Of a stretch of 64,000 nt of DNA, positions 43,524 to 57,759 are shown in pieces (position 1 is the stretch's first letter; every line of letters begins with the position of its first letter). Origin of the DNA: an uncultured Candidatus Rokubacteria bacterium (GTDB lineage: Bacteria > Methylomirabilota > Methylomirabilia > Rokubacteriales > CSP1-6); assembly GCA_963789955.1 (NCBI GenBank), contig CAWBMV010000001.1, positions 224,001 to 288,000 of the forward strand, read 5' to 3'. Under the pieces are notes generated by a model. It did not search any database and was not told the origin of the DNA. It worked only from the letters and a program-made list of their open reading frames with translations. The translations under genes were made by a program, and so were the position numbers.

Positions 43524-46500
43524 TCAACGGGAGGGCTGCTCAAATAGGCGACGCGCGCTTCGAAGCTGCTTCGCGCAGGCGAGCAGGTCCCCCACCATCC
43601 TCGTCAGTTTGTCCGGCGTGAACGGTTTCTGGAGCAGCACCGTGCCCGGATCCAGCACTCCGTGATGAACGATCGCGTCGTCGGTATAGCCCGACATGTA
43701 CAGGATCTTCATCGCCGGCCGGGCCCGGACGAGACGGTCTGCCAGATCGCGTCCACTCATTTCCGGCATGACCACATCGGTCAGGAGCAGGTGAATCGGA
43801 CCCGCGTGACGATGCGCGATGTCCAGCGCCGCGCTCGGGCTGCCGGCCGAGAGCACCGTATAGCCCGCGATCCCGAGTACCTCGGTGGCCAGGTCTCGGA
43901 GCTCGCCCTCGTCCTCGACTACGAGCACGGTGCCCGATCCGACGGCCGGCGGCGCGTCGGTCGCGGGTGCGGGCGCGGCGTCCGCCAGTGGCGCGACGCG
44001 AGCGAAATAGATCCTCACGGCCGTCCCGGCGCCCGGCGCGCTCTCGATTCGAATGTAGCCGCCGTGCTGCTTGACGATGCCGTACACCGTCGCCAGGCCG
44101 AGCCCGGTGCCCTTGCCGACGCCCTTGGTCGTGAAGAACGGCTCGAAGAGATGCGCCTGAACGTCGGGGCTCATGCCGGTTCCGGTGTCGCGCACGCTGA
44201 GCATGGTGTGTGGCCCGGCACTCGAGCCCGGGTGCGTCTCGACGAACGCCGGGTCGAGCTCGACGTTCCCGGTCTCGATCGTCAGTCGACCGCCCTGGGG
44301 CATCGCGTCCCGGGCATTCACGGCAAGGTTCAGGATGATCTGCTCGATCTGCGCCGGATCGGCCTTCACGCGACCGAGGACCGGGTCGAGCGACGTGTCG
44401 AGCTCGATCGTCTCGCCGATCAGCGGCTTGAGCATCTGGGCCATTCCCGCGACGACGCCGTTCAGGTCGAGCACGCGCGGCTGGAGCATCTGCTTGCGGC
44501 TGAACGCGAGAAGCTGCTGCGTGAGGGCCGCTGCGCGATCGGCGGTCTTCCTCACCAGCTCCACGTCGCGCCGGTGAGGATCGTCGGCCGCCAGGCGCAA
44601 TAGCAGGAGCTCCGTGCGTCCGGTGATGACGGTCAGGAGGTTGTTGAAGTCGTGCGCGACGCCGCCGGCGAGCTGACCCACCGCCTCCATCTTCTGAACC
44701 TGGCGCAGCTGCGCCTCGCTCTGCCGGAGCGCCTGCTCCGCGTGCTTGCGCTCGCTGATATCGAGCACGGTCGACTGGCTGGCCGGCTCACCCGCCCAGA
44801 CGATCTCGGTGACCTGGATCTCGACCCAGATCTGCGAGCCGTCGCGCCGGGTCGCCTGCAATTCGTACCGGGACGGCACCGCTTCGCCCCGAAGCCGCGC
44901 TGCGCGGTCGCTCTCGAGCCGCGCGAGCTCGTGCGGCTCGATCCAGCGGCGGGTGTCGAGGCCGACGAGCTCATCGGCGGTGTCGTAGCCGAGCATCCGC
45001 GCGAACGCCGGGTTGGCGAACAGGGTGACCCAGTCGCGCTGGATGTGCAGGCCCTGGATCGAGCTCTCGACCAGTGTGCGATAGCGGCGCTCACTCTCGC
45101 GCTCGCTCTCGAAGAGCTGGGCGTTTCGGATCGCGACGGCCGCCTCGTCGGCGAGTCGCAGCAAGATCGCCTCGTCGTGATCGCTGAACGGGCGCTTCGT
45201 GCGATTCGCCACATAGAGGAGCCCGACCACGTGATCCTCGCTCTTGATCGGCACGACCATCGCGCTGACACTGTCGTCCCTGACGACGGCGCCGAGGTAG
45301 TCCTTGCTGAAGGCCGGATCGTTCGTGTAGTCGTCGGTCCGTAGCGGGCGTCCGCTCAGCAGCGCCTGACCGCCGAATCCCTTGCCGGGCTCGATGCGGA
45401 ACGTACGGTCGGAGGTGTAGCGCGAACCGACGCGGTGGCGGACCGTCACGGCCTCTGTGTCGCCTTCGCGGAAGCCGATCATCGCCAGGTCGCTGCCGAC
45501 CAGCTCCTTGGCGCTGTCGGTGATCCGGCGCAGCACCGTATCGAGGTCGAGCGACGCGGTGATCGCCTGCGCGACGCCGGCGAACACCTCGGACTCCCGG
45601 CGCCGGCGCTCGCTCTCCTGGTACAGCCGCGAGTTCTCGAGCGCGAGCGCGGCCTGATGCGCGAACGCCTGCATGAGCTCGATCTGCCGAACCGAAAATG
45701 GCCCGACGTCGTCGCGGTAGGTGACGAGCGCGCCGAGCACCCTCTCGCCGACGAGGAGCGGGACGGACAGCACGGCCCGGTAGCCCTCGGCCTCGACGGC
45801 GGCGCGCGTCGACTCCGTGAGATCGAACGCCGGATCGTTCAACAGGTCGGCCGACCAGACCGGGCGGCGCTGGGCAATCGCGGCGGGTGTCGTGCCGTCG
45901 CGCGGATGCAGCGGACGCATGGCCGGGAACGCTCGGGTCATCCCGCGGCTCGCCGCGAAGAGCGTCGCGGTGTCGGGATGATCGGCGTGCACCAGCGCGA
46001 CCGCGGACCGCTGGGTGCCGAGCAGCGAGCAGGCGCGGTCGACGACCAGCGACAAGATCCGCTCGAGCTCCAGCGACGAGGCGATCGCGCCGCCGAGCTC
46101 GGCGAGCGCCTCGGCTTCCTGTCGGCGCGCGGCGTTGTCCGCAAAGAGCCGCGCATTGTGAATCGCGACCGCGGCATGGTCGGCGAGCCGGAGCAGGATC
46201 TGCTCGTCGCGGTCGGTCAGCACTCGGTCGTCACGGTTGGCAACCGAGAGAAATCCCTCGACGCGATCCTCGATCTTGATCGGCACGGCCATGTACGCAT
46301 GCAGGTCTTCCACGCGCGCGACCGCGAGGAACTCCGGCCCGAACCGGGTGTCCTCGAGATAATGGTCGGTGCGAAACGGCCGGCCGGTCGCGAGCACCAG
46401 ACCGCTCGCACCCTGGCCGGGCGCGATCAGGAACGACCGGTAGTCCGCGTAGCGCGCGCCCGGCCACTGACGAAAGGCGAAGATATCGGTGACGACATCG

Positions 46501-47241
46501 CGAAGGGCGATGAACGCCATGTCGGTCCGGCAGACCTCGCGCGCCCCCTCGGCGATCCGCTGCAGCACGGTCGCGAGCTCGAGCGACGTGTTGACCGTGC
46601 GGACGACGTCGGCCAGGAGCTCGGACTCGCGCTGACGCCGCCCGGCCTCCTCGTAGAGTTGCGCGTTCTCGATGGCGATCGCGGCCTGGTCGGCCAGGAG
46701 TCCGGCGAGATTCTTTTCCTCGGCGGTGAAGTCGCCGCGGGAGCCGAACGCGACGATCAACGCGCCGACCGCGCGTTCGTGGTGGATCAACGGTAGCGCG
46801 ATGCAGGCGTGGAGCTCGCTCGTCTCGGCGAGCGCGCGGTGCCGCCAGCGCGGATCTTGCTGCACGTCGGCGAGGTACTCGGGCCGGCGCGAGAGCAGGA
46901 CGGCGCCGGCGATGCTGTTGTTGTCGCGGGGCACGGCTGTGGTGCGCACGATCCGGCCCGCGCGCTCGGGTCCGGCCCAGTAGCTGCCGCCTTCGCGCAG
47001 GGTCTCGGCGCCCTGATCGACCCAGACGTAGGCCATCTTCGCCTTCAAGAGCAGGGTGGCCGCCTCGGCGATGCCGCGGAACGCCGTGGCGCTGTCGGTC
47101 GCCGACGTCATGAGCCGCGTGAGGCGGCTGAGGGTGGTCAGGCGCTCGGCGCGCTCGTCCGCCTGACGCAAGCGTGCGGTGGTGGGGGTCGGGGGCCGTC
47201 CGCGCCCGCTTCGCGGGCTTGGGACGCTGCCGCTTATTCAA
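43524..47241 (-). CDS. Hybrid sensor histidine kinase: 4xGAF-PAS-HisKA-HATPase-REC (probable frameshift near the 5' end)
   Basis: Four GAF repeats ending LA.QAA.A..NA.L; AHDFNNLL, NARDAMP, FFTTK, GTGLGL; LTDVVMP, KPF. Confidence 0.9.
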
Positions 47242-48484
47242 TGGCGAAGTGCAATCGCGCGTGGGCCTTTCGGAGCGCTTGCTCGACCGTGTCCGGCATC
47301 TCGGCGCGGGCGAAGATGAACCCGAGATACTGCCAGCCCTCGGGCAGCGGCACCACGTCCTGTCCCGGGTGCATCGTGATGACGACTTCCTCGATCCCGT
47401 CGATCGCGGCGGCCTCGTCGGTGCCGTGGACCGCCGCGAGCCGGCCCGCGCGCGGGATCGGAATCATCATGACGCCGGCGGCACGTCGCTCGCGCTCGAG
47501 CGATGCGAGGGGACGTCCGAGCGCGTGGCAGAGGATGAGCTCCTCGAGACTCAGGCCCGTCCCGAAGGTCAGGGTGCGCGAGCACAGCCCACCGATCGAG
47601 CGCGCGGCGACCTCGAGCACGACGGGACCGCGCTCGTTCAGGCGGAGCTCGGCGTGGATCGGTCCCTCGGTGAGTCCGAGCGCGGAGCAGGCGTCGCGCG
47701 ATACCGCGGCGACGCGGGTCTGCATGGCCTCGGGGAGGCGCGACGGCGTCACGTAGATCGTCTCCTCGAAGAACGGGCCGTCGAGCGGATCGGGCTTGTC
47801 GAAGATCGCCAGCACGTGGAGCGTGCCGCCGACCAGCAACCCCTCGAGCGCGACCTCGACACCAGGGATGAACTCCTCGACGAGCAGCGCACGGCGCGCC
47901 TCGTCCGGCAAGGACACGTCGGTCATTTCGAGGATCGCCGAGATTCGACGGAAAGCCGCCACGAATTCTCGCGCGTCATTCGCGCGGATGACGCCGCGGC
48001 TGGCCGAGAGCGAGAGCGGCTTCAGGACGCAGGGGTACTCGATCTCGGCGGCGCGGGCGGCGGGGTCGTCCGCCAGGGTCACGAGGCGAAAGCGCGGGAC
48101 GGGCACGCCGGCCTCGGCGAGACAGCGGCGCATCGCGTGCTTGTCGCGCGCCGTGCTGACGGCCGGGAGCGAATTGGCCTTGAGACCAAGCCGTTGGCTG
48201 ATGGTGGCGGCGACGACCGTGGTGAGATCGTCCACCGGAACGACGGCATCGATCGGTCGTCGCTGCGCGAAGCGCGCGATCGTCTCGGCGCTCGCGCGAG
48301 GATCGGCGAAGTCGAGCGTGATGAGGGAGTCGGGGGCCAGGGGCTCGAAGGTGCTCGGCCGCTCGGAGGCACACACGAGCTCGACGCCCAGCCGGGTCGC
48401 GGCCTCGACGAAGGCCTCGGTGCGGTACGTCGTCGTCGGCAGGAGCAACAGTAAACGGCTTGCCGACGACGACACCGGCGTCAA
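47234..48484 (-). CDS. ATP-grasp domain protein (L-amino-acid-ligase-like)
   Basis: RDKHAMR, VLKPL...ASRGV, VEEFIPG.E, HAELR, EVAARSIGG, YLGFIFA. Confidence 0.88.
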   Translation of the reverse strand: MTPVSSSASRLLLLLPTTTYRTEAFVEAATRLGVELVCASERPSTFEPLAPDSLITLDFADPRASAETIARFAQRRPIDAVVPVDDLTTVVAATISQRLGLKANSLPAVSTARDKHAMRRCLAEAGVPVPRFRLVTLADDPAARAAEIEYPCVLKPLSLSASRGVIRANDAREFVAAFRRISAILEMTDVSLPDEARRALLVEEFIPGVEVALEGLLVGGTLHVLAIFDKPDPLDGPFFEETIYVTPSRLPEAMQTRVAAVSRDACSALGLTEGPIHAELRLNERGPVVLEVAARSIGGLCSRTLTFGTGLSLEELILCHALGRPLASLERERRAAGVMMIPIPRAGRLAAVHGTDEAAAIDGIEEVVITMHPGQDVVPLPEGWQYLGFIFARAEMPDTVEQALRKAHARLHFAIE

Positions 48485-48505
48485 CCCCTCACGCCGAGGC
48501 GTGGG

Positions 48506-48787
48506 CTAGGCTTTACCGGGCGTGTAGTAGGGGTTGCTCCCGGCGGAGTGGTCGGTCGCGTCGAGGACTTCGGCGATCTCGGGGATCTCTTCCTTGATCA
48601 GCCGCTCGATGCCCTGCTTGAGCGTGACATCCGCGGCGCCGCAGCCCTGACAGCCGCCACCCATCTGCAGGTACACGCGGTTGTCCTGCACGTCCACGAG
48701 CTCGACGAAACCGCCGTGGCCGGCCACCGCGGGGTTGATCATCGAATCGATCAACTCCTGAACCTTGGTCTTCAGATCATCGCTCAT
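48506..48787 (-). CDS. NifU/NfuA C-terminal Fe-S carrier
   Basis: INP.VA.HGG.V, GGCQGC, TLKQGIE, D.TDH..G.NPYY; RBS GAGGTG. Confidence 0.9.
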   Translation of the reverse strand: MSDDLKTKVQELIDSMINPAVAGHGGFVELVDVQDNRVYLQMGGGCQGCGAADVTLKQGIERLIKEEIPEIAEVLDATDHSAGSNPYYTPGKA

Positions 48788-48797
48788 GCAGCACCTC

Positions 48798-50225
48798 TCA
48801 AATCGATACTGTACCCGAGTTCGTGCTCAGGGCCAACTGGCCCTCCGTGGGCTCCGCTCAGCAAAACCACGGTTCGGTGAGGCGCGGCGGCCGCTTCCGC
48901 TTGGCGTCGGGCGCCGAAATCGGCCGCACGGGGAGGCCGGCGGTCCGGTCCGCCAGCTCCCGGACCCGCTGGAAGGTGACCGCGGCGTCCTCGCGGCGGT
49001 CGGCCGCGCCGGCCACGACGGCCGACACCTCCGCGTGTAGGGCCTCCATGCGTGGGTCGGGGTGGATCCAGCGGTGATAGAACTGTTCTTCGACGAGCTC
49101 GCCCAGGAACGGACGCATGGCGTCGCTCTCGAGCAGGAGCGATCCCGGCGGGATCAGAAGCCGAATCGAGAACTGGACGGGATCGACGGCGTCGACGAGC
49201 CCATGAGCTTCGACGAAGTCCAGTAGCTGTCGGTAGTCCTCGAGCGTCGTCCACGGTGTGAACGCGACCCACGTCGGGCGGAGCGCGATGCCGGCGTCGG
49301 CGGTGACCTGTACCGCCGCCTCGATGTCGGCGCGGGAATGACCCTTGTCGAGGTGCGCCAGGATCTCATCGTTCAGCGACTCGGCGGCCGACACGATGAA
49401 CGCGCATCCGAGCCGCGCGAGCTCCGGCAGCCGGTCGCGATGGCGCAGCAGGTGCTCGATTTTTGCCGTGAAGTCGAAGGTGAGCGTAGGAAACGCTTCG
49501 TGAAGCGCTCGCGCGACGGCCAGCGCGTGGCCGGGACCGTTCAGGAAGTCGGGATCCCCGAACGTGATGTGGGTCGCGCCGGCTTCGACCTGCTGACGGA
49601 TATCCGCGAGCAGCACCTCGACCGGCACCACGAAGAAACGACCGCCGTACACGGGCGGGATCGGACAGTGCCGGCACAGGTGCTTGCAACCTCGACTCGC
49701 TTCGACGTAGCCGACCAGCTCGAGCCCGCCGTCCCGCTCCAGATGCGCGTACTTCTTCAACGAGGGTAAGCTCGCGCGACTCGGCGCGGGAAAGTCGAGC
49801 TTCGCGAGGACGCGCAGAGGCTGGGGGGGCGCCGCCGGTGGGCTCGCGATCTCCAGCGTGCGGACCAGATCGATCAGCGCCCCTTCGGTCTCGCCGCTCA
49901 TGACCGAGTCGGCGATGCCGGCCAGCAGATGCTTCGCGTTGAGCGTCGCATAGAGCCCGCAGAACGCGATATGGCACGCAGGGTTCAAGGCTCGCACGCG
50001 GCGGGCGACGGTGACGCCGAGACGGAGGGCCGTGTGCATCGGCACCGAGATCGCGACGAGCTTCGCGCGCTTGACGCGCTCGGCATCGAAGGGCTCGACC
50101 GATACGTCCATCACCGCCGGCGCGTAGCCCGCGCGCTCGAGAAACGCCGCCGGCCACGCGACGGCCAGCGGCTGATGGCCGAGCTCGTAGCAGGCAACCA
50201 GCAAGATCGCGCCGCGCTCCTTCAT
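48798..50225 (-). CDS. CUAEP/CCAEP-tail radical SAM selenoprotein (Sec encoded by TGA 48858-48860)
   Basis: B12-binding-like N-terminus (CYELGHQP, SVPMHTA), CKHLCRHC, FGDPDFLNG. EPWFC-TGA-AEPTEGQL reads through to the TGA at 48798. Confidence 0.88.
48829..48844 (-). promoter_or_regulatory. Bacterial SECIS-like hairpin
   Basis: AGGGCC-AGUU-GGCCCU; the loop begins 19 nt after the UGA and has G as its second base. Confidence 0.65.
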
Positions 50226-50274
50226 GCTCAAGAGTGTACTCCGCGCAGTGTGCAGCCGCAGAGCCCCGGCGGTG

Positions 50275-50385
50275 CGCGCCGCAGGTCGTCGCGGGGCTGG
50301 GGTCCCCGCCGACCGAGGCGCGCCTATGAACGGACCGCGCCGCAGGTCGTCGGGGGGCTGGGGTCCCCGCCGACCGAGGCGCGCC
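50275..50385. repeat. Two 50-bp palindromic (REP-like) direct repeats, 61-bp period
   Basis: 50275-50324 versus 50336-50385, one mismatch; each unit folds GGTCG..G(C/G)GGGG/CCCCGCCGACC. Confidence 0.85.
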
Positions 50386-50448
50386 GCAGGCATGGTTTGT
50401 GGTGGTATCGTGGGTGGCGCTGCTCAATTCCCAAGGAGGACTCACGCA

Positions 50449-50655
50449 ATGGCCGTCAAGATCACGACCCGGCCGAACGGCCCGTACCTGATCGAGGGTG
50501 AGTGCGAGCTTTACGATCCGACCGGGGCGCCGATCAATACGGCGGGCCAGGCGAGGATTGCGCTGTGCCGGTGCGGGGCGTCGACCAACAAGCCGATGTG
50601 CGACGGCACGCACAACAAGGTCGGCTTCCAGGCTTCGGAGGCCGCGAAGAAGTAG
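50449..50655 (+). CDS. CDGSH iron-sulfur domain protein
   Basis: RBS AAGGAGG; NGPY, LCRCG.S.NKPMCDGTH. Confidence 0.92.
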   Translation: MAVKITTRPNGPYLIEGECELYDPTGAPINTAGQARIALCRCGASTNKPMCDGTHNKVGFQASEAAKK

Positions 50656-50661
50656 CCGAAC

Positions 50662-50949
50662 CTATTCGGGCTGGGTGTCGGGCTCGACGTCGGTCAGGAG
50701 CACCCAGTCGTCTGGCGGCTCGGGAGCAGGCCGCGTCTTCGGCGCCGAGGTGATGGTGCGGCCGCGGCTCGGCGAGAACCACTCCCACACGCCGCTCGGT
50801 GCGCCGGCGTCCTGGGCCTCGCCGACTTCGGGCCCGACAGCGCCGGACTCCGCGCGCTCGGTCTTACGCTGTCGCTTGGCTTCCTGCTTGGCCTTCTGGA
50901 TGTCGGCTCGACGTCGGCGCTCGAAGCCGTAGTGCCCCCCGCGACTCAC
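50662..50949 (-). CDS. Hypothetical protein
   Basis: Basic N-terminus (YGFERRRR), WEWFSPSR; plausible codon usage. Confidence 0.55.
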   Translation of the reverse strand: MSRGGHYGFERRRRADIQKAKQEAKRQRKTERAESGAVGPEVGEAQDAGAPSGVWEWFSPSRGRTITSAPKTRPAPEPPDDWVLLTDVEPDTQPE

Positions 50950-52666: not shown

Positions 52667-53443
52667 TCAGCGCCCCTGCCAGTCAGGCTTTCGCTTTTCG
52701 AGGAACGAGCGCACGCCTTCGTGGAAGTCTCGGCTCAGATAGCAGGACAGGATGAGATCGTCGAGGTCTCGGGGCGCCAGCACGGCCAGCATCCGGCGCG
52801 TGGCCTCTTTCGTCGCGGCGATCGTGAGCGGAGCCAGCTCGGCCAGGCCCGCGGCGAGCTCCCGCGTGCGTGACTCGAGCTCCGGCGCCGGATGGACACG
52901 ATCGATCAGCCCGATCGTTTTGGCCTCCTGAGCGTCGAGCAGCCGCGCCGTCAGCACGATTTCGCGAGCACGGTTGGGACCGAGCACCGACACGAGCAGG
53001 GTGAGGCTCACCGGCGCCAGGAAATTCCCGAGCGTGCGGGCCACCGGGATGCCGAAGCGCGCGTGCGGGGCGGCCAGCCTCAGATCGCACGCCAGCGCGA
53101 TGAAGAGCCCGCCACCGATCGCGTCGCCCTGCAGCATGGCGATCGTGGGTTTGCTCATGCCGGCCAGCTTCGAGAGCACCCGGGTCAGACGAGCCTCGTA
53201 GTCGAGCGCGTCCTGGCGGGTCTCGAAGTCGAGGAACTGGCGGATGTCGGTGCCGCTCGCGAACGCCTTGTCACCCGCGCCCCGCAAAATGACCGCGCGC
53301 ACGGCCGGATCGGTGTCGAGGGTGGCGCACGCATCGTGCAGCGCCTCGTACATCTCGAACGTCATCGAGTTGCGCGCGTCGGGACGATTGAAGGTGAGCA
53401 GCGCGGTGGGCCCGTCGCGCTCGACGAGGAAGTGGTCCGTCAT
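52667..53443 (-). CDS. Enoyl-CoA hydratase/isomerase family protein
   Basis: TFNRP..RN, AFASGTDI, AIGGG, CDLR, DFHEG..SFLEKR.P.W.GR. Confidence 0.9.
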   Translation of the reverse strand: MTDHFLVERDGPTALLTFNRPDARNSMTFEMYEALHDACATLDTDPAVRAVILRGAGDKAFASGTDIRQFLDFETRQDALDYEARLTRVLSKLAGMSKPTIAMLQGDAIGGGLFIALACDLRLAAPHARFGIPVARTLGNFLAPVSLTLLVSVLGPNRAREIVLTARLLDAQEAKTIGLIDRVHPAPELESRTRELAAGLAELAPLTIAATKEATRRMLAVLAPRDLDDLILSCYLSRDFHEGVRSFLEKRKPDWQGR

Positions 53444-56400
53444 CCGAGCCGTCGCGGGGTCACCCCGAAGCCCCAGTCCCGAAGGTCCTGATCGAGCTGC
53501 TCGCGCCGCCGCTCGGCGCGCCGCCGCTCCTCGGTCAGCTCCTCGAACCGCTGGCGCTGCTCGCCGCGGCGCCGATCGAGGAGCACCCGGATCCTCGCGG
53601 CGCCGGAGAGCTCTTGAGCCAGGAAGTCGTAGAGGTCGGGCTGCGAGCGGGCCACGATGAAGAGGTGCCCGAGCTCGGTCACTTCCTTTTCGGGCTGCTC
53701 CCGGCCGGAGCGCATGTCGAGCTCGTCGAAGGCCCGCTGCGCCTGCGAACGGCGCTGCGCGGCGGCCTCGACGTCGCCCAGCCGCGACTCGAGCGGCGCC
53801 GAGGCTCAGCAGGCACGACGCGACGAGCGGGCGCAGCCCGAGCTCGGCGGCGAGGCGCAGCGCCTCTTCGTACCGCGTGCGCGCTTCGCTCGGGTCCGCG
53901 GGGACGCGGCGGGCGGCGATGTCGCCCAGCACCTGAAGCGCCTGCGCTTCGTGCCCGCGCTCGCCGTGCTCGCGCGCCATGTCCAGAGCCTGGCGCGCCG
54001 TGTCGAGCGCCTTTTGATGCTGACCGTCGGCCAGAAAGCCTTCCGCGAGATTGACGAGCCAGGCGGCGAGATACGCGCGGATGCCCAGCTCACGGCTCAG
54101 GGCCACGCCGTCCTCGAGCAGGCGAAGCCCCTCGGGCACGTGGCCCATGCGGACGAACGCGAGGCCGAGCAGCGAGAGCGGAATCGGCAGCCACACGGTG
54201 AGGTGCTTCTTGCGGCAGGCTTCCAGTCCGCGCTCGAGCGGCATCACGGCGCGCGCCAGGCGCCCGCGCCGGATCCATACGAGCCCGATCAGGGTCCAGG
54301 CGATCAGACGGCCGTACGCGTGCTGCGTGGTCTCGGCGGCGCGTTGCGCCTCGGCCAGGTACGAATTCGCCGCGTCGAACGCGCCGCGGTCGGCGAGGCT
54401 GAAGGCGAGCCACCCGCACGAGGCGACGTACGAGATCGTCGCTTGATCGCCGGCGGTCGTGTCGATGTTCTCGCGGAGCGCGCGTTCGGCCCGGGCGTAG
54501 TCGCCCTGGGCGTGATAGCTCTGGCCCATGTACTGGCGCGCCAGTCCCTGGAGCGCGGCATCGCCGATGGCGCGGCCCACGTCGAGACAGCGCTGGCCGT
54601 ACTCGATCGCCTGCTTCGTCTCGCCCTTGAGATAGTGGTAGTTGATCAGATAGGTGTAGACGCGAGCCAGACGCGCCTCGTCGCCGAGGTCGCCGGCCAG
54701 GCGCTCGGCTTCGCGCGAGACGCTCAGGACGTCGTCGAGCCGGCCGAGCTGCAGGAGCGGCGGGCGCAGGTCCAGGCGAAGGTCGATCGCCTGCTCGCGC
54801 GTCTCACGCGTCTCCGGGAGCCGCTTGAGCGCGGCGAGCGCGTCTTGAAAGGCCTGGACCGCTTCGGTGTTCGCCGCATGCAAGACCGCGCGCGCGCCGA
54901 CCTGCCGGTTGTACACGAGCGCTTTCGCCCACACCTCGCCCCGCGATGCATGGAACGCGAGCTGGTCGATATGGCTCGTGCGACGGTCGTGGTAGAGCCG
55001 CTCGATCGCCTCCACGATCCGCGCGTGCAGGACCCGCCGCTGCTCGCGCAGCAAGCTCGCATAGGCGACGTCGCGGGTGAGCGCGCTCTTGAAGCGGTAG
55101 ACGACGTCGGGGAACAGGCTCGCCTCGTAGAGAAAGCCGGCGCCTTGCAGGCTCGCCAGCGCGCGTCCGACGCTCTCGGCCGGAACGTCCACGATCGCCT
55201 CGAGCAGCGCTTGCGGCACGTCCGAGCCGACCACGGCGGAGGACTGGAGCAAGAGCTTCTCGTCGTGCGGAAGCCGGTCGATGCGGGCGGCCAGGACGGC
55301 CTGGACCGTCAACGGCACCTGGAGCGTCTTGAGCTCGGCGCCCATCCGATAGGCGCCGCGCTCGCCCACGAGCACCTTGGTCTCGACGAGGGTGCGGACG
55401 ATCTCTTCCAGGAAGAACGGGTTGCCGTTGCTCCGCTGGATCAGAAGGTCGCGCAGGGCTCGGAGCGAGCGGCTGTCCCCGAGCAGCTCCCGGAGCAGCT
55501 CGTCGGTCGCCGCCGACGAGAGCGCGTCGATCTCCAGATGATTGAAGCCGGCGCGCCCGGCCCAGTCGTGCTCGTATCCGGGCCGGTAGTCGACGAGCAG
55601 CAGCAGGCGCGCGGTCGGGATCCGGTCGAGGAGGCTATCGAGAAAGGCCTGCGTCTCGGCGTCGACCCACTGGAGGTTCTCGAGAACGAGCACGAGCGGC
55701 TGGCGCTCGGTCTCCTTCAAGAGCACGTGCGTGAGCGCGTCGACCACCCGGTCGTGCCGCTCGCGCGCGTCGAGCTGTCGAAACGGATCGTCCGATGGCA
55801 ACGCGTCGAGCAGCGACAGGGTCGGCGCCACCGCCTCGCCCAGCCCGGGATCGAGCTCGCGGATGATCGCGGCGATCTTCTCGGCCACCCGTGAGGCCGG
55901 GTCGAGCGCGTCGAGCTCGAAATACGATCGGAGCAGCTCGATGATCGGGCGATACGACGCCGCTCGCTCGTACGAGTGCGAGCGGCCTTCGAGGATGCGC
56001 CACGTCTGGGTCTTCGCCGAGCGAAGGAACTCGTGGATGAGCCGGGTCTTGCCGACACCCGCCTCCGAGCTGACCGCCGCGATCTGACCGTGGCCGGTGC
56101 GCGCGAGCTCGAGCAGCGTGTGCAGCCGGTCGAGCTCCGCGACGCGCCCGATGAATCGCGAGAGCTGCTGCGTGTCGGCGGAACGCAGCCTCGAGCGCGC
56201 CGGCGCCCCGCCGACGAGCTCGGAGACCTCGACGGCCGCGTCGAGTCCTTTGACCGGCCGGGCGCCGAGTGCAGTGACCTGCACGGCGCTCTCCGCGAGC
56301 CGGACCGTGCTCGGCGCGACGAGGATGGTGCCCGGGTCCGCCATCTGCTCCATGCGGGCCGCCAGGTGGGTGGTTTGACCCACCGCCGAGTAGTCCACCT

Positions 56401-56923
56401 TGAGGTCGCTCCCGATCGAGCGCACCACGACCTCGCCGGAGTTGAGACCGACGCGGATCCTGACCGAGATGCCCTCGGTCTTCTGGATCAGCTCGGCGTA
56501 GCGCCCGACGGATTCCTGCATCCGCAGCGCGGCGTAGCAGGCGCGCACCGCGTGGTCCTCGTGCGCGAGCGGCGCGCCGAAGAGCGCCATGATGCCGTCG
56601 CCCATCACCTGGTTGACCGTGCCTTCGTAGCGGTGGACCGCCTCCATCATGCGCTCGAGGACGGGGTCGAGCAGCCGGCGAGCCTCCTCGGGATCGCGGT
56701 CGACGAGGAGCTCCATCGAGCCCTTGAGATCCGCGAAGAGGACGGTGACCTGCTTGCGCTCGCCGATCATCGCGGCGCGCGAGGTCAGGATCTTGTCGGC
56801 GAGGTGCGGCGGCGTGTAGGCCTTGGGTACGGCGGTGGGTGTCGCCGCCGTGAGGCTGGTGCCGCAGCCGTTACAGAATCGGGCGCTGTCCGGGTTGTCC
56901 TGCTGGCAGGCCGGACACTTCAT
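53440..56923 (-). CDS. Double Zn-ribbon - class III adenylate/guanylate cyclase - AAA ATPase - TPR protein (frameshift near 53800)
   Basis: CPAC..FCNGCG, VLFADLKGS, GDGIMALFGAP, AARMEQ, EAGVGKTRL, GNPFF.EE. Confidence 0.9.
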
Positions 56924-57759
56924 CCTTTGACGCTCCCGGCCGTGAGCCCTTCCACCATATAGCGCTGGAGGTAGGTATAGACGAGGATGACCGGGAGTGT
57001 GGTGAGGACGGCGCCGGCCATCAGGTAGCCCCAGCCGTAGACGTCGCCCGTAATGAACGTGGAAAGGCCGACCGGCAGCGTCCGCTGCTTGACGTCGCTG
57101 ATGAACACGAGGGCGTACAGGAATTCGTTCCAGGCCTGCGTGAACGCGAAGAGGCCCGCCGCCAGCACGCCGGGCGCCGCGAGCGGCAGGATGATGCGCC
57201 GAAACGCGCCGAAGCGCGTGGCGCCGTCGATCATCGCCGCCTCTTCCAGCTCCTCCGGGATCGAGCCGAAGTACCCCATGAGGAGCCACGTCACGAACGG
57301 CACCGTGAAGGACGGGTAGGCGGCGATGAGCCCGGCCAGGCTGTCGGCCAGCCCCATCGTGCGAATCTGCGCGTAGAGCGGGATGAACAGGATCGACGGC
57401 GGCACCAGGTACGTGATCAAGGTCGCGCTCGACAGGAAGGCGCGGCCCAGGAAGCGCAGCCGCGCCAGCGCGTAGGCGCCGAGGGTGCCGATGGCCGTCG
57501 CGACGAGCGTGCTCGACACCGCGACGAGCGCGCTGTTGCGGAACCAGACCGCGAAGTCGGTCTTGGTCAGGAGCTGGGTGTAGTTCTCGAGCGCGAACGG
57601 CGAGGGCCAGAACATCGAGACCAGGCTGCGCATCTGGTCCTCGGTCTTGAACGACGTGACCGTCATCCAGTAGAACGGAAACAGGACCAGCAGCAGCAGG
57701 AGGCCCAGGAACGTATAGGCGACCGCGGTCTGGAGCCGTTCGATCGCGTCCCGGTTCAC
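56920..57759 (-). CDS. Carbohydrate ABC transporter permease
   Basis: EEAAMIDGA, AWNEFLYAL, GLTAGSVKG. Confidence 0.9.
   Translation of the reverse strand: MNRDAIERLQTAVAYTFLGLLLLLVLFPFYWMTVTSFKTEDQMRSLVSMFWPSPFALENYTQLLTKTDFAVWFRNSALVAVSSTLVATAIGTLGAYALARLRFLGRAFLSSATLITYLVPPSILFIPLYAQIRTMGLADSLAGLIAAYPSFTVPFVTWLLMGYFGSIPEELEEAAMIDGATRFGAFRRIILPLAAPGVLAAGLFAFTQAWNEFLYALVFISDVKQRTLPVGLSTFITGDVYGWGYLMAGAVLTTLPVILVYTYLQRYMVEGLTAGSVKG

Follow-up and report, generated by a model that had tools for sequence, protein, structure and literature searches.

What does a radical S-adenosylmethionine (SAM) selenoprotein make when its gene travels with genes for an iron-sulfur (Fe-S) carrier and an amino-acid ligase? 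The question is raised by a stretch of 64,000 nucleotides (nt) from contig CAWBMV010000001.1 of an uncultured Candidatus Rokubacteria bacterium (hereafter the window; all positions count from its first letter). Three closely spaced minus-strand genes in the window encode a CUAEP-tail radical SAM selenoprotein of 475 residues (48801-50225, with its stop codon, the second in-frame TGA, at 48798-48800), an Nfu-type NifU-domain protein of 93 residues (48506-48787) and an ATP-grasp enzyme of the L-amino-acid ligase (Lal) type with 416 residues (47234-48484). The original prediction had listed these genes together with a hybrid sensor kinase gene and a divergent CDGSH iron-sulfur protein gene, and all five were found at or near the predicted positions. 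As predicted, a gap of 10 nt, which contains GAGG, lies between the radical SAM stop and the NifU start; from the NifU stop to the ligase start it is 21 nt. Comparison of gene neighbourhoods shows a conserved set of three linked across phyla, in which the radical SAM selenoprotein is joined by the Lal ligase and an iron or Fe-S helper, and we tentatively propose for it a chemistry resembling that of the arsenic enzyme ArsL.

The radical SAM protein scored 684.8 bits on the family model NF040546 (cut-off 500), over model positions 1-467 of 468, and a six-frame search of the genome with this model gave 678.3 bits. Judged by this full-length match, its CxxxCxxC cluster motif (C180/C184/C187) and its C-U-A-E-P tail, it is a true member of the family, with no structural difference. 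Pfam matches comprised PF04055 (45.8 bits) and, in the N-terminal domain, the B12-binding family PF02310 (34.2 bits against a cut-off of 32.1). Only C180, C184, C187 and C455 were invariant cysteines across 34 sequences. The family tail follows the consensus E-x-W-F/Y-C-U/C-A-E-P-T-x-x-Q, in which, besides the cluster ligands, C455 and U/C456 are the only conserved chalcogen residues; in the window protein these are a vicinal Cys455-selenocysteine (Sec) 456 pair. Assignment to a CUAEP/CCAEP-tail family without a known function was thereby upheld, and Haft's 2022 preprint still terms NF040546 uncharacterised. A literature search with subscription journals outside its coverage returned no further paper on the CUAEP family and no description of the module.

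Codon 456 is an in-frame UGA (48858-48860); read with TGA as U, the protein has the C-terminus ...RLTEPWFC-U-AEPTEGQLALSTNSGTVSI. A species-level genome collection supplied 80 homologous loci for comparison (hereafter the 80 genome loci). Five had tails that were cut off or unreadable; in the remainder, codon 456 was TGA in 60/75 and TGC or TGT in 15/75, and the AEPT..Q that follows was common to the TGA and Cys forms. Nearly all radical SAM matches listed from the window's own phylum have one in-frame TGA. The genome also encodes the machinery for selenocysteine: selA (592.2 bits), selB (358.9 bits) and selD (304.3 bits) each exceeded their cut-offs, and tRNA-Sec lies beside selA and selB (C1:731972-732069 within the cluster C1:731972-736707) on the window's own contig, about 460 kb away, with selD on a different contig.

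For the window alone, the 71 nt after the UGA gave a fold that was not significant (z -0.51), so a comparative test for a selenocysteine insertion sequence (SECIS) hairpin was required. We compared 59 TGA loci and the window (n = 60; one TGA locus near a contig end was omitted) with the 15 Cys forms. Stems of at least 5 bp were present in 57/60 Sec forms, with the 5' arm ending 20-22 nt past the U of the UGA. These hairpins, at nt 16-32, have a GU-containing loop, AGUU(N), and about 50 distinct stem sequences with compensatory changes. The mean stem measured 6.1 bp in Sec forms versus 2.6 bp in Cys forms, none of the 15 having the hairpin, and 2.8 bp in shuffled sequences, 9.8% of which attained a stem of at least 5 bp. 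In the window the SECIS-like hairpin, AGGGCC-AGUU-GGCCCU (48829-48844, minus strand), lies 16-31 nt past the U, a placement that agrees with the usual bacterial SECIS geometry. A scan of the whole window against Rfam at gathering scores gave 0 matches and hence no fit to a curated SECIS family. Codon alignment, hairpin and Sec machinery all back the C-terminal Cys-Sec pair that had been predicted and show, as far as comparison of sequences reaches, that Sec is inserted at codon 456 through the SECIS hairpin.

The predicted kinship with ArsL was supported by hidden Markov models in both directions and by phylogeny. The ArsL model NF040542 was the second best for the window protein, at 321.5 bits (cut-off 450), the third family reaching 49.9 bits. 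Reciprocally, three RCC[I/L]KC-tailed proteins found with the window protein reached 340-362 bits on the CUAEP model, against 477-656 bits on the ArsL model. In a 56-row tree, these three ArsL-type proteins and one CCAEP-tailed protein formed a clade with 99% SH-aLRT support (an approximate likelihood ratio test of the Shimodaira-Hasegawa kind). The split between ArsL and the family is unrooted in this tree; because the outgroup branches are long (6-9 changes per column) and the base of the family is without resolution, ArsL may be either sister to the family or nested inside it. These comparisons show ArsL to be the closest characterised relative at the sequence level. The two share domain order, cluster motif and a Cys-rich C-terminal tail. 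The ArsL tail, RCCLKC, has three cysteines, whereas the window protein's tail, WFCUAEP, has the Cys-Sec pair with no third conserved Cys and lies further out by about 50 residues, with other conserved residues around it. Their partner genes also differ, arsM and arsQ for ArsL and a Lal ligase and an Fe-S helper for the window protein, and, unlike ArsL, the window protein's family is near-universal in whole phyla. To our knowledge, ArsL is the sole CxxxCxxC radical SAM enzyme known for aminocarboxypropyl transfer, and the only use known for it is in making a rare antibiotic. According to two reports, ArsL cleaves SAM into methylthioadenosine and a 3-amino-3-carboxypropyl (ACP) species (10.1101/2024.02.01.577332; 10.64898/2026.04.29.721666).

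The ligase carries ATPgrasp_N (42.4 bits), ATP-grasp_4 (116.7 bits) and LAL_C2 (69.1 bits), all over their gathering scores, and fell under every NCBIfam cut-off. Its nearest solved relatives were BL00235 (3vot, E 4e-43) and BacD (E about 1e-21), which have the same three-domain Lal architecture, whereas the window ligase belongs to a separate clade that keeps 50-60% identity across phyla. BL00235 produces Met-Gly and Met-Met (PMC6920838); methionine is an ACP-thioether, a mild hint at most.

We profiled the own phylum in 251 genomes labelled Rokuibacteriota or Methylomirabilota, including the unpublished G076, G034 and G217, counting the radical SAM gene as present at a family-model match of E up to 1e-60. 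The gene was found in 186/251 genomes (176 over the cut-off) and in 82/104 high-quality genomes, and the ligase query matched in 194/251. Both genes were present in 174 genomes, the radical SAM gene only in 12, the ligase only in 20 and neither in 45. The two are jointly absent in whole families of the phylum; family f7 had the radical SAM gene in 5 and the ligase in 7 of 21 genomes, and f13 in 5 and 6 of 20, respectively. Among the best 30 own-phylum loci, examined with a 1.5 kb flank, NifU lay downstream in 20, the ligase was present in 18 and the CDGSH gene in 7, and 8 had none of the three.

Beyond the phylum, neighbours were recorded within 6 kb at the 80 genome loci. The ligase was among them in 28/80: Methylomirabilota 10/11, Acidobacteriota including Blastocatellia 7/9, Nitrospirota 3/10, Planctomycetota 4/9 and Chloroflexota 3/17, with one further locus from an oddly labelled bin. 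It occurred in three gene orders (downstream, upstream and convergent). The adjacent orthologues at these loci, at the own-phylum loci and on the metagenome contigs described below were 50-87% identical. All five genomes examined that lacked an adjacent ligase (5/5) carried an orthologue elsewhere, at 51-56% identity, and in 2/5 it sat directly after an Nfu-type gene. Among 80 metagenome contigs, a sample biased by its selection on the motif WYCCAEP, the ligase lay directly downstream in 62, with YggX in 42, DUF169 in 9 and NifU in 2. In one protein, P0255, a Lal ligase and a CCAAP-tailed radical SAM domain are fused. Complex prediction for a natural Cys-form radical SAM and ligase pair (from L072) gave no answer (score 0.00) and weighs neither way. 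The co-occurrence of the radical SAM gene with this ATP-grasp clade and NifU, anticipated by the original prediction, was thus recovered. Judging from gene order and co-distribution, we regard the radical SAM gene and the ligase as truly linked.

One unlinked ligase locus has a context of its own. In the Manganitrophus genome G252 (locus L138, 5155-7752), an NfuA-type gene (Fe-S_biosyn and NifU domains) is followed by the ligase orthologue and then by a rhodanese gene; the ligase there has a second partial match with four TGA codons, which may reflect a frameshift.

The third member of the unit varies. The window's NifU protein matched PF01106 at 86.9 bits, has the CxxC motif GGGCQGCG and aligned to the C-terminal half of NfuA at 96.8 bits, under the NfuA whole-protein cut-off. 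At the 80 genome loci, NifU (Nfu) was found in 25, YggX (Iron_traffic) in 13 and an IscA-type protein in 6, and one or another of them in 43/80. Beside the radical SAM gene, Nfu, YggX and IscA are mutual substitutes in different phyla. Genes of the NF040546 type were also present in at least ten further phyla, mostly in the selenoprotein form. This relative of ArsL is far commoner than ArsL itself, and a dedicated amino-acid ligase and Fe-S helpers go with it.

Five proteins extend the family's domain content. In P0137 and P0272-P0275 (584-737 residues, from two sources), a family-type radical SAM domain is followed at the C-terminus by a MerB-like domain, a natural fusion that recurs; all are Cys-Cys forms and fall in one clade. 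On NF040546, 4/5 scored 614-623 bits, and the fifth, truncated at its N-terminus, scored 455.7 bits, under the cut-off. The C-terminal domain matched PF03243, reached 44-65 bits on MerB models and 27-39 bits on SaoL, all under the cut-offs, and keeps WCWCAWD and further Cys residues. It has in common with the MerB and SaoL lyases the C-x-x-D motif (WCAWD), as a weak match; unlike these, the window protein is without such a domain, and none is encoded beside it. The window's genome held two MerB-like hits only, weak and unlinked, and the 80 WYCCAEP metagenome contigs, all with unfused forms, gave 0/80.

Sec and Cys have been exchanged repeatedly in the family, with at least six changes on the 56-row tree, of which at least three are forced by well-supported branches. 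Among genomes with Cys forms, 4/5 were without a selD over the cut-off (best 51-80 bits against 125), one of them being recorded as complete, so selenium supplied by SelD would not be obligatory for the pathway. We therefore rejected selenium as an obligatory substrate, as unlikely.

The most likely reading of the module's chemistry, which we put somewhat short of even and which is drawn by analogy with ArsL, is ACP transfer to a soft atom on the Cys-Sec pair followed by dipeptide formation. As in ArsL, cleavage of SAM would give methylthioadenosine together with an ACP species, which would be a radical or else be bound to cluster iron. A soft atom held on the vicinal Cys455-Sec456 pair of the conserved tail would capture the ACP group, and the product would be a gamma-hetero-substituted 2-aminobutyrate, an amino acid resembling methionine or glutamate. 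The ligase would then couple this product to a second amino acid, while Nfu, or YggX or IscA in other phyla, would resupply or protect the [4Fe-4S] cluster.

Several observations weigh against this proposal. The ArsL model aligned to residues 7-401 of the window protein, leaving the tail outside the alignment. The family tail has two ligands, whereas ArsL is reported to hold As(III) through three tail cysteines (10.1101/2024.02.01.577332; 10.64898/2026.04.29.721666). Families of ars, mer or selenium-metabolism genes were not among the neighbour families found in at least 3/80 loci (rarer neighbours were unscanned), no efflux, transporter or regulator gene was consistently linked, and no locus examined had a MerB-like gene beside the radical SAM gene. 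On the side of the ligase, it was not within 6 kb in 52/80 genome loci, including all of those from Gemmatimonadales (0/8) and Poribacteria (0/9). The co-occurrence counts come from related genomes, many of them incomplete metagenome-assembled genomes, so the two-by-two table overstates independence, and we claim no probability from it. Finally, the P0255 fusion is represented by one sequence only, with a radical SAM part that scored 317.7 bits, under the cut-off.

For the captured atom, arsenic has precedent, but a wider carbon-metal(loid) chemistry is suggested by the two-ligand site, the lack of ars neighbours and the MerB-like fusions. With two ligands only, no ars context and a housekeeping-like distribution, we rate arsenic itself as less likely. 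More far-reaching is the reading that many soil and marine phyla constitutively use the module to make an organo-element amino acid and a dipeptide of it, with ArsL-type chemistry on the Cys-Sec tail creating a carbon-metal(loid) or carbon-chalcogen bond; we consider this possible but, on balance, doubtful. If it is true, the MerB-like fusions would represent carbon-metal(loid) bond chemistry of this family beyond arsenic. Identifying the substrate would uncover an organo-element metabolite of wide occurrence or else a new role for a Cys-Sec pair in radical reactions, and direct tests in vitro are within reach through the natural Cys forms, the ligase partner and the MerB-like fusions.

The same tail can be read without any captured atom. 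The Cys-Sec pair might be a redox arm, a mobile selenenylsulfide that gives electrons or a hydrogen atom; the enzyme's 5'-deoxyadenosyl chemistry would then be canonical, with an amino acid or the dipeptide from the ligase as its substrate. Thioredoxin reductase offers a comparison, as it has a C-terminal Cys-Sec. The conservation of only two chalcogen residues in the tail, the repeated exchange of Sec and Cys and the absence of metal(loid) genes among the recurrent neighbours are all consistent with such an arm, and so is the predicted structure. The AlphaFold2 model of the radical SAM protein (predicted local distance difference test score 94, predicted template modelling [TM] score 0.92; residues 441-470 at 81-90) was closest to AprD4 (6fd2, TM 0.66), an enzyme of the 5'-deoxyadenosyl type with a B12-like domain. 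OxsB (0.63-0.65), MiaB (0.56-0.61) and TsrM were also matched. The overall fold of AprD4, OxsB, TsrM and MiaB is like that of the window protein, but identities are 13-20% and the Cys-Sec tail is found only in the window protein; the search of PDB structures returned no ArsL entry. Yet ArsL, by far the closest characterised relative, produces methylthioadenosine and holds its substrate with the Cys tail, and the MerB-like fusions suggest metal(loid) handling. We judge a redox arm unlikely.

Rather less likely again, in our estimate, is a sacrificial enzyme that inserts sulfur from an Fe-S cluster, as LipA, MiaB and RimO do, with Nfu, IscA or YggX rebuilding the cluster afterwards. NfuA rebuilds the auxiliary cluster of LipA in this way. 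Helpers within 6 kb at more than half of the 80 genome loci, the occurrence of Rrf2 and Hsp70 in three loci each, and the presence of MiaB and RimO among the fold matches (TM 0.53-0.61) would fit this scheme. A sacrificial cluster would need its own ligands, however, and the invariant cysteines comprise no conserved auxiliary-cluster set, being limited to the three of the CxxxCxxC motif and C455; the helpers may just shield an oxygen-labile cluster in lineages that are mostly aerobic.

The original prediction had the Cys-Sec tail binding or reducing a soft metalloid such as As(III), the radical SAM enzyme making a non-proteinogenic amino acid and the ATP-grasp enzyme ligating it into a peptide. 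Taken as an arsinothricin-like antibiotic cluster, this would mean an arsenic amino acid from the radical SAM enzyme and a Trojan-horse peptide from the ligase. Lal enzymes such as BacD do build warhead dipeptides, and the homology of the window ligase to BacD and of the radical SAM protein to ArsL, together with an ATG22-type major facilitator superfamily (MFS) gene that adjoins the module in 5/80 genome loci (all Blastocatellia), would suit such an antibiotic cluster. This reading was not sustained. The radical SAM protein stays under the ArsL cut-off and its tail lacks both the RCCLKC motif and a third Cys; neither arsM nor an ars permease is among the recurrent neighbours, a Pfam scan of the window's flanking open reading frames (ORFs) found no arsM or ars permease family, and no transporter is consistently linked. 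Moreover, the gene is near-universal in the phylum, both in the full set and among high-quality genomes, so a housekeeping role fits better than an antibiotic cluster, which we consider very unlikely. That the genes are chance neighbours without shared function, as the many genomes with an unlinked ligase might suggest, is hardly credible, because adjacency survives rearrangement in at least five phyla, both genes are jointly absent in whole own-phylum families and one natural ligase-radical SAM fusion exists.

Other genes around the module were of narrower distribution. The divergent CDGSH gene of the window (50449-50655, plus strand; 68 residues, PF09360 67.1 bits) has counterparts at 8/80 genome loci which, like those among the best 30 own-phylum loci, are every one from Methylomirabilota, and we rejected it as a part of the module because it is lineage-specific. 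Of the Fe-S supply that had been proposed for NifU and CDGSH together, the NifU part therefore stands, through its interchange with YggX and IscA, and the CDGSH part falls away. The hybrid sensor kinase (43524-47171, minus strand; four GAF domains, PAS, HisKA, HATPase and REC by Pfam) was rejected on the same ground, since only L055-L058 have a long kinase ORF after the ligase, and it is probably just a local neighbour. The kinase gene had been described as overlapping the ligase gene, which we could not confirm: its earliest ATG, GTG or TTG start is a TTG at 47171, 62 nt beyond the ligase stop (47234-47236), and an in-frame TGA (47238-47240) lies just upstream of this start.

Among the remaining neighbours at the 80 genome loci, DUF169 occurred in 17, a formyl transferase in 8 (Chloroflexota) and an AI-2E transporter, like Rrf2 and Hsp70, in 3. 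The DUF169 (PF02596) neighbours are Cys-rich, for example in L068, L072, L076, L083, L085 and L106. Soil and sediment metatranscriptome runs held 0.12-0.26 of the sampled words, from which we draw no inference on expression or habitat.

Two GC-rich direct repeats of 55 nt (50270-50324 and 50331-50385), which separate the divergent radical SAM and CDGSH genes, are 95% alike; with 89 BLAST hits genome-wide, the repeat unit is a dispersed element resembling repetitive extragenic palindromic (REP) sequences. Beyond the CDGSH gene lies a 95-residue ORF (50662-50949, minus strand) that starts MSRGGHYGFERRR and had no match in the Pfam scan; its homologues (cluster 13) occupy the same position beyond CDGSH in six Methylomirabilota loci. 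Further along, a minus-strand frame of 1540 residues (52667-57289) combines a zinc ribbon, an adenylate/guanylate cyclase domain, AAA_16, TPR and a terminal enoyl-CoA hydratase, and may be two genes merged by the ORF listing.

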